Counted from the stretch's first letter, positions 3,055-21,606 are shown. The stretch is DNA of 32,000 bases from Methanocaldococcus jannaschii DSM 2661 (GCF_000091665.1 NC_000909.1:760712-792711), one strand, 5' to 3'. Notes: generated by a model from the sequence alone, not told the origin. Made by a program: numbers and translations.

Positions 3055-3131
3055 TGGAGCCTCGGGCGGGGTTTGAACCCGCGACCTCCTGCTTACCAAG
3101 CAGGCGCTCCGCCAGGCTGAGCTACCGAGGC
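3055..3131 (-). tRNA. tRNA-Thr (anticodon GGU), CCA encoded
   Basis: The reverse complement folds as a cloverleaf. Acceptor GCCTCGG/CCGAGGC; D stem GCTC/GAGC; anticodon stem CCTGC/GCAGG with loop TTGGTAA; T arm GCGGG-TTCAAAC-CCCGC; discriminator T plus CCA. Confidence 0.9.
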
Positions 3132-3309: not shown

Positions 3310-3385
3310 AGCCCGGTGGTGTAGTGGCCTATCATCCGGGGCTTTGGACCCCGGGACCGCGGTTCGAATCCGCGCCGGGCTACCA
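3310..3385 (+). tRNA. tRNA-Gln (anticodon UUG), CCA encoded
   Basis: Acceptor AGCCCGG/CCGGGCT; anticodon stem CGGGG/CCCCG with loop CTTTGGA; T arm CGCGG-TTCGAAT-CCGCG; discriminator A plus CCA. Confidence 0.9.
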
Positions 3386-19280: not shown

Positions 19281-19826
19281 TTAATCTTCTTTCCACATAA
19301 AAGCAAAATCTTTTAATGCTCTTTTTACCCTATCTATATTTCCTTCAATGATTACTTTATCTTTCTCATCACTGTATTCAAATATAACCCCATGCCATTC
19401 TCCTAAGTCACTCAATCTCTCAATCTGCATCTCTTTTTGTAACTTTACCCTTATTGCTTCTACTTTTCCTCTTTTTTTAACTTCCCTATTGTAGTTGCTT
19501 TTACTCACTGGGAATTTAGCATTAATCTCTCCTCTAATAGCTTTTATCATCCTATCTAAGTATTTTTCAGTCAGTTCAGTATCACATAAGCTAAAGAGTT
19601 GTGATTGAACATAATTCAGTTCTCTTTCAACATTTGCCAATATATTTATGGATGCATGAGGGTCTAAAATGTAATAAGAAAGGAGAGCGTTGGCTAATCT
19701 AAGCTTCTCAAAAACAATTTCAGGAACTTTAATCCCCCTATTAACCAACTCAGCTGATAACTCAGATAATACAACCCACTGTTTATCTAAGTTTCTTGCA
19801 TCCTTCATTCCGTTCCCCATTTCCAT
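19281..19826 (-). CDS. Conserved archaeal hypothetical protein (possibly DUF2096-like); start uncertain
   Basis: A 181-aa ORF with coding-like composition. The annotated ATG (19826-19824) lies inside an inverted-repeat arm of the TnpB-proximal structure. Alternative ATGs are at 19820 and 19808. Confidence 0.55.
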   Translation of the reverse strand: MEMGNGMKDARNLDKQWVVLSELSAELVNRGIKVPEIVFEKLRLANALLSYYILDPHASINILANVERELNYVQSQLFSLCDTELTEKYLDRMIKAIRGEINAKFPVSKSNYNREVKKRGKVEAIRVKLQKEMQIERLSDLGEWHGVIFEYSDEKDKVIIEGNIDRVKRALKDFAFMWKED

Positions 19827-19949
19827 AGCTTACCATAGCATTTAATAACTTATCATATAATAACTTATCGTATCTAATCGGTAAGCTATGGAAACGGGTT
19901 GTCCTCAACCCATAGCTTCATCGGGAAACACCGTTCCCTCTGCTATGGG
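19823..19949 (-). ncRNA. Candidate TnpB-associated omega-RNA/right-end scaffold (multi-hairpin region)
   Basis: Read 5' to 3' on the minus strand there are four stems. First, CCCATAGC (19949-19942) pairs with GCTATGGG (19916-19909). Second, this encloses GGGAA-CGGTGT-TTCCC (19938-19923). Third, GGTTG-AGGA-CAACC (19910-19897) spans the tnpB stop. Fourth, a 12-bp perfect stem CCATAGCTTACC (19891-19880) pairs with GGTAAGCTATGG (19834-19823) around a 45-nt AT-rich loop. The location, overlapping the tnpB 3' end plus downstream flank, matches that of characterised omega-RNAs. Confidence 0.4.
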
Positions 19950-21208
19950 TTCATTGGACTTAGGGCTGAACGGATACAGCCCCGTAAATCTCTTTATCAA
20001 ATTAAATACAGCTACAGTATCCCTATCAGCATAAAATCCGCAATCAAAGCAATACATTAGCCTCGAAGGCAGAGCCCTCTCATCGGCTAATTTATACAGT
20101 TGAGATAATCTACTCCCACAATTAGGACATTTTATCGAAGTGTAAGCCGGATTTCCTTCAATAACTTTAACGCCAAATTCTAAGCATTTATTTTTTAAAT
20201 AACCTAAGAATTTTTTAGCTGAGATGTTATGCAATTTATGTTTTAGTTTTTTAAATGATTTTTTAGCAATATTTTGGTTAAAATAAGGGGATAAGTCTTC
20301 AATAACTAAAACTGCATTATTTTCTTTAAGTTTTTTGGCTATTTTGTTGGCTAACTTTTTTAGTATATCTTCTCTGATATTTTTTAACCTCCTACCGAAT
20401 TTTTTAGCAAAATAAATCCTTTCCTCTTCAACGGTTTATCCTGCTTATGAATTCCTTTAAAAGAAAATTTCTCTTGAATGTTAGTCATTATGTTGGAGTA
20501 TTTTTCGGTTAATTTTCCTAAATCTGTTTTTATTAACTCTATATTTTCGAAATTACCATAGGTTATATTGTCTAAGTTAAAATCTAAGGCATAAACGGTT
20601 TTATAACTATCATTAATTGTTATCTCCTTCTCTAATGGAATTAAAACAGTTATCGTTCCATCTTCTTTATTCAATCTCAATTTAAATCCAGCTTTTATTC
20701 CCCAGCCTTCATTTAGCAGTTTAAAAAACTGTTTATGAGGCTTTAGGGGAATAACTATTCTACCATTCGGTGTAGATAATCTTAAATGCAAAGTTTTCTT
20801 TCCTTCTTTGTCTATCAAAAATAGTTTTTCTATATTGTTTTTAAAATCTCTATAGTTTGTTAAAACGTCATCTAACCATAAGGAAATGTTTTTAATTTTT
20901 GGTTTTGAAGTGTAAGCTTTATCTCTCTTTTTCATTGCTATAAAGCTTTTTATTCTCGTGGATGCATCTTGAGAGGCTGTATAAATATAATGAGTCGGTA
21001 ACTTTGGGAGTTTGGATTTTATTTCTTCATAAATTCCCTCTCTAATCTTTCTATGGCTCTTTCTATTATTTTTTAAACCGAAATCTAAAGCAATAGATAA
21101 AACTTCTTTATAAGATTCGATAGTATTCTCTATGATTTTTATTTTTGTTTTTGTTAATGGTTTGCTTTTCAATGCAATAGTTTTAGTTAGTTTGATTGTT
21201 TTGGGCAT
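19905..21208 (-). pseudogene. tnpB: IS200/IS605-family (IS1341-like, stand-alone) TnpB/OrfB RNA-guided nuclease homologue, split by one frame change
   Basis: The N-terminal ORF (20384-21208) carries the RuvC-I-like YALDFN motif. The second frame is open from 20435 to 19905 and reads ...FAKKFGRRLKNIREDILKKLANKIAKKLKENNAVLVIEDL (RuvC-II E). It continues with the zinc ribbon CPNCG...CFDCG and RuvC-III YADRDTVAVFN. The second frame is -1 relative to the first. No tnpA gene is adjacent. Confidence 0.85.
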
Positions 21209-21264
21209 GATAAGTATTTTGTAGGATTCTATTTCTATATTTTTCTTTCTATGCTATAATTTTG

Positions 21265-21606
21265 CTATTGTTTGTTATTATTTGATATGGGCTTAGAATT
21301 GTTTTGAATCCTTAACCTCTCAATATATCTTTTTAGGACCTGCTCACTATCATAATTAATTCTAACATTCATCTTCTTAAACTCTTCCTTCAACTCCTCT
21401 ATATTTGTGTCTTTATCTATAAAAAATACTTGATAACTTGTTGTTGAGTTTATATTAAAGATGGCAACTTTATCATCATCCTTTAGCTCTCTTTTATCAA
21501 TGGCAGCTCTAACTTTAACGAAATTTTCCATTTCGCTATTTAATGCCTCTTTAACAGTTAATATGGATATTAGGGTAGCAACAAACTCTACATTTTTATC
21601 GTTCAT
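21265..21606 (-). CDS. Hypothetical protein (113 aa)
   Basis: The ORF has coding-like composition and is co-directional with, and 33 nt downstream of, the preceding gene. I recognise no motif. Confidence 0.5.
   Translation of the reverse strand: MNDKNVEFVATLISILTVKEALNSEMENFVKVRAAIDKRELKDDDKVAIFNINSTTSYQVFFIDKDTNIEELKEEFKKMNVRINYDSEQVLKRYIERLRIQNNSKPISNNNKQ

Follow-up and report, generated by a model that had tools for sequence, protein, structure and literature searches.

A probable guide-RNA scaffold at the 3' end of a frameshifted IS607-type tnpB element in Methanocaldococcus jannaschii

Between the DUF749 and DUF2096 genes of Methanocaldococcus jannaschii DSM 2661 lies a transposable element with a broken tnpB gene, and the subject of this study is the structured region that overlaps the 3' end of that gene and the right end of the element. 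The window analysed is a stretch of 32,000 nt (GCF_000091665.1 NC_000909.1:760712-792711), to whose first letter all coordinates refer unless another locus is named; within it, the element spans approximately 21310 to 19810 on the minus strand. As reconstructed, the insertion point is between two overlapping genes, with the element in the same orientation as both. The region is very probably the omega RNA (also right-end element RNA, reRNA), i.e., the guide-RNA scaffold, of an IS607-family tnpB element of hyperthermophilic euryarchaea; as such, it adds a member to an RNA class already known and does not found a new one. The features on which the argument draws are listed here.

21209 to 21310, minus strand: degenerate left end of the element, within the annotated 3' tail of the DUF749 open reading frame (ORF)
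19905 to 21208, minus strand: tnpB pseudogene, two ORFs (21208-20384 and 20234-19905) split by a 1-nt deletion
19810 to 19985, minus strand: whole putative omega-RNA scaffold, three stem-loops and a 3' tail, about 176 nt, from the 35-copy covariance model
19962 to 19983, minus strand: stem-loop 1 (the 'nexus'), GGGGCUG (19983-19977) with CAGCCC(U) (19968-19962), loop UAUCCGUU
19901 to 19959, minus strand: stem-loop 2, a composite stem of three helices that includes the first two stems of an initial annotation of this DNA
19897 to 19910, minus strand: GGTTG/CAACC hairpin across the stop codon, present in the window copy
19816 to 19898, minus strand: stem-loop 3, the terminal hairpin, whose stem (19898-19879 with 19835-19816; about 20 bp) closes a variable, AU-rich loop
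19810 to 19815, minus strand: scaffold 3' tail, GAACGG (GGAAACGG in almost all other copies), ending in the GG junction dinucleotide 19811-19810
19790 to 19809, minus strand: predicted guide AAUGAAGGAUGCAAGAAACU, of an assumed length of about 20 nt, in the host sequence flanking the right end

Copies of the element were collected by protein and DNA searches. A scan of reference genomes with the repaired TnpB protein returned 5 loci (Methanocaldococcus sp. 28A, M. indicus and metagenome-assembled genomes, MAGs), with the source genome not among them, and a protein search at E <= 1e-10 gave a family of 19 proteins, in which the Methanocaldococcus members are 77-96% identical and three distant members, one from Thermococcus sp. 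M39 and two from euryarchaeal MAGs or metagenome contigs, are 42-44% identical. Metagenomes were scanned with a DNA pattern built around three conserved motifs, which gave 26 more loci, and 23 of these were kept; L024, L031 and L044 are GC-rich chance matches that were excluded by eye, and the covariance model confirms the mismatch. Removal of duplicates left 35 distinct copies in three clades (Methanocaldococcus, Thermococcus-like and other euryarchaeal contigs). Viral contigs gave no match to the scaffold pattern, and no further copies were found within the window by motif search, repeat search or the covariance model with its filters off. As far as these searches show, the system is confined to hyperthermophilic euryarchaea, i.e., Methanocaldococcus, Thermococcus-like organisms and related lineages.

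The covariance model built from these 35 copies matches 19810-19986 on the minus strand at 150 bits, with no other credible match in the window, and the scaffold so delimited covers the final 79 nt of the tnpB ORF, stop codon included. On the same copies, RNAalifold predicted a structure of 33 pairs, and compensatory changes are seen in 22. An explicit model was also scored, consisting of stem-loop 1, the composite stem-loop 2 with a GUCC/GGAC closing helix, its inner hairpin, the long stem-loop 3 and a pseudoknot; across the 35 copies, 92.6% of cells are paired and 23 pairs are altered on both sides. The covariation score of the explicit model is 0.418, compared with 0.175 +/- 0.009 for 500 shuffled controls, of which none scored as high, and with 0.04-0.09 for slid controls. 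The initial annotation had proposed such a covariance check across other tnpB copies and had allowed that these might lack covarying stems; the stems are kept, and compensatory changes occur within each of the three clades (10, 9 and 5 pairs).

Support is spread over all three stem-loops. Stem-loop 1 is paired in 95.6% of cells, with 2 pairs altered on both sides (e.g., U-A 23 versus C-G 8), and it forms when the full scaffold is folded to minimum energy at 37 C. Two copies from Methanocaldococcus sp. FS406-22 (L007 and L008:2722-2760) both have a damaged stem-loop 1 (GGGGGCTTTCCGTTGTCCC) and a shorter protein C-terminus, with intact tnpB ORFs. Stem-loop 2 is built from a closing helix, GUCC (19959-19956) with GGAC (19904-19901), a middle helix, AACCCAUAGC (19951-19942) with GCUAUGGGUU (19916-19907), and an inner hairpin, GGGAA (19938-19934) with UUCCC (19927-19923). 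These helices are 97.9%, 92.3% and 98.9% paired, respectively, with 13 pairs altered on both sides, and the structure was recovered independently by RNAalifold; in the closing helix, U-A in 18 copies alternates with G-C in 14. The window copy carries an extra T at 19928 (minus strand) in the inner-hairpin loop, GGUGUUUCCC versus GGUGUUCCC elsewhere, by which the last tnpB codons shift frame and the stem is unaffected. Stem-loop 3 has 8 pairs altered on both sides, and where Methanocaldococcus copies pair CCGUUUCCAU with AUGGAAAUGG, those of the other two clades pair CCUCCUGCACC with GGUGCAGGAGG.

The scaffold ends in a short tail whose last five nucleotides, AACGG (19814-19810), are complementary to the stem-loop 1 loop segment CCGUU (19973-19969), and in the 85 C minimum-energy fold the CCGUUC of that loop is paired with the 3' GGAACG. 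A pseudoknot between the nexus loop and the 3' tail is therefore likely. Many Methanocaldococcus copies read GGAAACGGGAAACGG at the right-end tip, and the tail is duplicated in one further copy (L040:108-274, minus strand; GGAAACGGAAACGG). The GAAAC repeats at the right end and the GAAAC/GTTTC of the left-end tip may be binding sites of the transposase TnpA.

In the window copy itself, the four stems described in the initial annotation all lie on the minus strand: CCCATAGC (19949-19942) with GCTATGGG (19916-19909), GGGAA (19938-19934) with TTCCC (19927-19923), GGTTG (19910-19906) with CAACC (19901-19897) astride the TGA stop codon at 19907-19905, and CCATAGCTTACC (19891-19880) with GGTAAGCTATGG (19834-19823). 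The repeated heptamer was likewise located, GCTATGG starting at 19916, 19839 and 19829 and its complement CCATAGC at 19948 and 19891, and the GC-rich island in AT-rich surroundings is borne out by a G+C of 0.49, the highest within the 3.5 kb profiled, against a window mean of 0.33. Three details are revised. The placement at the tnpB 3' end holds, but the limits 19949-19823 do not, as the conserved unit is 19985-19810; the 12-bp terminal stem is real, but is part of the longer stem of stem-loop 3; and the GGTTG/CAACC hairpin is present in the sequence but has no covariation support. None of its 5 pairs covaries and every departure breaks a pair, with the 5' arm varying (GGCTG, GGTCG, GGTTA, TCTTG) and CAACC never changing, and it is mutually exclusive with the GUCC/GGAC and AA/UU pairs, which do covary. 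When the full unit 19985-19810 is folded, the hairpin gives way to the long-range GUCC/GGAC helix; it is probably not a functional pairing.

The predicted folds are far more stable than expected from composition. The segment 19955-19815 (minus strand) folds at -63.2 kcal/mol, compared with -28.6 +/- 3.5 for 200 dinucleotide shuffles (z = -9.9, 0 of 200 as good), and the opposite, plus strand folds less well (-51.5 kcal/mol, z = -8.9). The full 176-nt unit folds at -81.7 kcal/mol at 37 C versus -42.1 +/- 4.1 for shuffles, reproducing the covariation model, and at -14.7 versus -1.8 +/- 1.3 kcal/mol at 85 C. By these energy calculations, the full unit stays far more stable than its shuffles in the growth range of the organism.

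The selection acting on this region also appears to be on a nucleic acid read in the tnpB sense, in which strand G.U cells number 83 versus 37 A.C cells. When a 3'-end query (20100-19760) was compared by blastn with the Thermococcus relative (42-44% protein identity), the 5' half of the scaffold was the only stretch that aligned. The points at which proteins of the family terminate are scattered between the 5' arm of stem-loop 2 and the loop of stem-loop 3, in different frames, which indicates that the constraint is on the nucleic acid and not on the peptide. In L015, L016 and L017, from the two non-Methanocaldococcus clades, the tnpB ORF runs through stem-loop 2 into the loop of stem-loop 3 (tails like ...EANLLHHKNAL...), so that family members differ by over 100 nt in where the stop codon falls relative to the RNA.

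The 3' limit of the scaffold is set by the copies themselves. The blastn similarity of every copy to the window ends at 19810/19809: all copies finish ...GGAAACGG (window copy, GGGGAACGG), and past ...AACGG the sequences are unrelated, which holds even for pairs of copies within one genome (L007 versus L008, L013 versus L014). This shared loss of similarity marks the boundary between scaffold and guide. The right-end junction (hyphens setting off the junction dinucleotide) is ...AAC-GG-flank in all copies but one, L014, which has AG. Intact left ends share about 100 nt upstream of the ATG and start flank-(G/T/A)AG-GG-TTTGAAACAGTTTCTTAG; flank-GG-TTTGAAAC is found in 10 of 12 left junctions, the others having TG (L001 and L006). 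These two copies are otherwise normal, with ...TTGT-GTTTGAAAC at L001:2376 and ...AAGT-GTTTGAAAC at L006:1375, and non-matching left and right core dinucleotides have been reported among IS607 integration products (bioRxiv 10.1101/2023.11.20.567912). In the Thermococcus-like clade (clade B), the left end reads AA-GG-CTGTTC, and AA-GG-CTGTTCTCTG upstream of tnpA. Left-end flanks are thus G-rich, (G/T/A)AG-GG in the Methanocaldococcus clade and AA-GG in the Thermococcus-like clade, with GAGGG at several junctions; from these junctions, (G/T/A)AGGG or AAGG is a candidate TAM, the motif that TnpB would require beside its target.

The left end of the window copy has decayed, its junction (21315-21293, minus strand) reading TTAAG-GA-TTCAAAACAATTCTAAG in place of the (G/T/A)AG-GG-TTTGAAACAGTTTCTTAG of intact copies. 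The assignment was retained because the position of the tip, 102 nt upstream of the tnpB ATG versus 100 nt in intact copies, agrees with the C-termini of DUF749 orthologs. These end ...YIERLRE or a close variant; the window protein, with YIERLR-IQNNSKPISNNNKQ, departs from them precisely at the left junction. In-silico removal of the element gives TTAAG-GG-AATGAAGG or TTAAG-GG-AATGAAGGATG, which encodes ...L R E followed by a stop, as DUF749 orthologs end, and the rebuilt site has an ATGA overlap of the DUF749 stop with the DUF2096 start. The reconstructed empty site, TTAAG-GG-AATGA, agrees with the ortholog C-termini and shows no target-site duplication. The protein ends favour three G's over two in the ancestral target, and an empty DUF749-DUF2096 junction is predicted to read ...TTAAGGGAATGAAGGATG....

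These boundaries also correct the local annotation, in that the transposon supplies both the 3' tail of the DUF749 ORF and the listed DUF2096 start. The final 15 codons of the DUF749 ORF (IQNNSKPISNNNKQ and stop; 21265-21310, minus strand) are left-end sequence, and the listed DUF2096 ATG at 19826 lies within the right end (19809-19826, minus strand). The true DUF2096 start is probably the ATG at 19808-19806, which the predicted guide stretch contains.

The tnpB gene of the window copy is split by a deletion near 20406, where intact copies read TTGCTTAAAAAA and the window reads TTGC-TAAAAAA, a single T being missing from the window when aligned to four intact copies. Two independent copies (P0010, ending ...REDKLKN, and P0013, ending ...KKFGR) are truncated at most about 20 codons from the window frameshift, in a stretch with several A runs, which suggests a homopolymer hotspot for inactivating indels near window position 20406. 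The C-terminal ORF of the window tnpB matches the Pfam Cas12f1-like TNB domain, and the gene keeps the RuvC residues D, E and D, a triad (D209, E309, D402) that is invariant across the TnpB family. In sequence, the protein lies far from the TnpB and Cas12f proteins of known structure, so that its placement needed a fold search: a sequence search of solved structures gave weak matches in the zinc-ribbon region alone (E about 0.005), whereas with a fold model of an 87%-identical homolog (predicted local distance difference test, 72) Foldseek matched AsCas12f (1e-16), the ISFba1 IS607 TnpB (5.5e-13) and ISDra2 TnpB (8H1J; about 1e-10).

The linked transposase places the family. Genes with HTH_17 and Resolvase domains lie upstream of tnpB in L017, L018, L020, L021, L025, L032, L037 and L040, and the best PDB matches of the family TnpA are MJ0014, ISC1926 TnpA and IS1535 TnpA (IS607-family). 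A serine-recombinase tnpA is also present at L018/L043, where TnpB is 89% identical to that of the window; the window copy and most Methanocaldococcus copies are without tnpA. Judged from sequence, the element family is IS607-type because its relatives carry serine-recombinase TnpA and GG junctions. Membership of the ISDra2-like IS200/IS605 group was ruled out on the same transposase, with no Y1 (HUH) gene among the called neighbours of any copy. The window copy is most likely an immobile relic, because its tnpB is frameshifted, its left end is degenerate and tnpA is missing; its RNA would be usable only with TnpB from elsewhere.

Combined, these results support the proposal of the initial annotation that an omega-RNA scaffold overlaps the 3' end of tnpB and takes in the right end, the guide lying just beyond, the compensatory changes, the G.U excess and the common 19810/19809 boundary all pointing this way. 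The comparison system named there, ISDra2, is replaced, since an IS607-family omega RNA fits relatives with serine-recombinase TnpA and GG junctions. Drawn wholly from characterised IS607 and IS605 systems, the mechanism would run as follows. Transcription would be in the tnpB sense, the RNA either belonging to the tnpB message or arising by read-through of the same-strand DUF749 gene upstream, and the RNA would fold into three stem-loops, with the CCGUU loop of stem-loop 1 pairing with the AACGG tail as a pseudoknot. TnpB would bind the folded RNA, whose guide, directly past ...AACGG, would be copied from the DNA flanking the right end; it would begin AAUGAAGGAUGCAAG... and would match the reconstructed empty site between the two host genes. 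Excision by the serine recombinase TnpA at the GG junctions would restore the empty site (G-rich motif, GG and flank), and this site, matching the guide, would be cut by TnpB, favouring re-copying of the element from the sister chromosome.

Several points weigh against this interpretation. The metagenomic pattern fixes three motifs, which may therefore look over-conserved in the metagenomic loci, and the covariation counts are without phylogenetic correction. The two pseudoknot segments, complementary in 94.8% of cells, are nearly invariant and do not covary, and they may be constrained for other reasons, the first encoding Ser-Pro-Phe and the second possibly being a TnpA site or the crossover site. 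Aligned over its full length to intact left ends, the window left end scores no better than shuffles; with the tnpB gene broken and the left end decayed, function at this locus is doubtful. The likeness to characterised omega RNAs is one of architecture and not of sequence, as no Rfam family matches, and a literature search found no transcriptome report for this locus. The same search found nothing specific on the locus or on a Methanocaldococcus TnpB guide RNA.

Other explanations were weighed against a guide-RNA scaffold. That the stems are DNA-level transposon-end signals with no functional RNA, as single-strand hairpins for a Y1 enzyme or double-strand sites for a serine recombinase, is very unlikely, although good folding is seen on the plus strand too (z = -8.9), the covariance model detects the terminal hairpin on both strands, and IS607 excision requires the right end (bioRxiv 10.1101/2023.11.20.567912). 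The GAAAC repeats of the last approximately 20 nt, set beside the GAAAC/GTTTC of the left-end tip, would also allow TnpA sites to overlap the 3' tail of the RNA. However, the usual IS200/IS605 explanation by single-strand DNA hairpins is removed by a linked TnpA that is a serine recombinase acting on double-strand DNA, with no Y1 gene among the called neighbours; double-strand sites, in turn, do not predict 23 pairs kept via two-sided changes, nor an excess of G.U over A.C that favours the tnpB-sense strand, and about 80 nt of the conserved structure is ORF sequence well away from the tip. Slightly less credence still is given to a role without guide function, either in stabilising or terminating the tnpB mRNA at its 3' end or as a leader of DUF2096. 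In its favour, the structure is at the end of the ORF and directly adjoins the DUF2096 start codon, and read-through transcripts probably carry it, the element lying in sense orientation between once-overlapping genes. Yet the structure moves with the element into unrelated flanks at every locus and so is not tied to DUF2096, no T run follows it, and three stems with an invariant tail ending exactly at the transposon boundary exceed the needs of a terminator and match IS607 omega RNAs.

That the structure arose by chance, from the heptamer repeats and the local G+C of an element in decay, can be set aside as already refuted by the comparative data: the GCTATGG/CCATAGC repeats do allow several pairings in this copy, but the same architecture is formed from different sequences in two other clades, and no shuffle folds as well. 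Within the guide-RNA interpretation, it is conceivable but unlikely that the window scaffold has been kept for its own sake after decay of tnpB, as an orphan guide RNA loaded in trans by the TnpB of another copy (as in non-autonomous, guide-only elements) or co-opted as a DUF2096 leader. Such retention was considered because the window scaffold is intact beside a frameshifted tnpB and because of a miniature element of about 330 bp in M. indicus (L004:2440-2769), in which the left-end tip GGGTTCGAAACAGTTTCTTAG... runs straight into the final approximately 170 nt of tnpB. This miniature element carries a full-scoring scaffold (162 bits) with the usual ...GGGAAACGG end and looks like a non-autonomous, guide-RNA-only derivative.

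Overall, the analysis provides a TnpB-omega RNA system with a covariation-backed secondary structure, an exact scaffold-guide boundary and a candidate TAM; the literature search turned up no published Methanococcales scaffold, and Rfam has no model for it. The IS607 omega-RNA plan of three stem-loops, a nexus-3' pseudoknot, a ...CGG end and a G-rich TAM would thereby be extended from bacteria to archaea. Intact relatives, e.g., the L018 metagenomic copy with tnpA and the copies of Methanocaldococcus sp. FS406-22, offer all the material required for testing a thermostable RNA-guided nuclease of about 430 residues.

Among known RNAs, Rfam at its gathering threshold found two tRNAs only in the whole window; these are divergent genes at 3058-3131 (minus strand) and 3310-3382 (plus strand), scoring 66.3 and 55.6 bits with the Rfam tRNA model. 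A permissive Rfam scan of 19650-20150 gave only meaningless microRNA and CRISPR-repeat matches on the long hairpin, and HgcC (RF00062), RAGATH-18 and other curated families were ruled out, neither of the two named scoring at E <= 10 in that interval. The archaeal sense-overlapping transcripts (sotRNAs) of IS1341-type tnpB genes and the HgcC family, discovered in M. jannaschii (PMC4615843), are, like the present scaffold, structured RNAs overlapping tnpB 3' ends in sense, and form G+C-rich islands in AT-rich hyperthermophile genomes; they differ in belonging to IS200/IS605-type elements and in a UUCA-tetraloop motif that resembles the right end. The ISDra2 omega RNA also spans the tnpB 3' end and the right end, takes its guide from the adjoining flank, has a scaffold of similar size with a pseudoknot, a likely feature here, and serves a protein of related fold. 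However, ISDra2 is mobilised by a Y1 TnpA that works on hairpins of single-strand DNA, and its TAM is TTGAT, in contrast to the serine recombinase and GG junctions found here.

The closer comparisons are with IS607 systems, in which GG stands both at the termini and at the target (PMC6188088). RAGATH-18-derived reRNAs (ISFba1; PMC11061315, PDB 8IAZ) guide IS607-type TnpB proteins, contain pseudoknots and go with G-rich TAMs; the GAGGG and AGGAG TAMs of these other IS607 TnpBs (PMC11061315) are close to the GAGGG seen at several left junctions here, and ISFba1 TnpB is a structural match to the present protein family. Their RNAs lie wholly downstream of the ORF and carry the RAGATH-18 motif, whereas the present scaffold overlaps the ORF. 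In characterised IS607 omega RNAs, the scaffold is made up of three stem-loops, finishes in ...UCGG and forms a pseudoknot that joins the nexus to its 3' end; the TAM and the TnpA target are one and the same TGGG, the GG core dinucleotide is strict, and the TCGG of the element's own right end is discriminated against at position -3 (bioRxiv 10.1101/2023.11.20.567912). Compared with two such RNAs, those of CboIStron from C. botulinum and ISXfa1 from Xylella, the present one has no detectable sequence similarity and no Rfam model, hyperthermophilic archaeal hosts, no group I intron, a much longer terminal hairpin, a junction-derived candidate TAM of (G/T/A)AGGG or AAGG versus TGGG, and a tnpA lost from most Methanocaldococcus copies. 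What is held in common is the plan: a scaffold overlapping the tnpB 3' end, with three stem-loops before the guide, a stem-loop 1 loop complementary to the 3' end, and an ending in ...CGG (here ...ACGG); a serine-recombinase transposase with GG as its core; and a G-rich left-end flank ending in GG opposed to a right-end C at -3, the feature that in CboIStron prevents self-cleavage.

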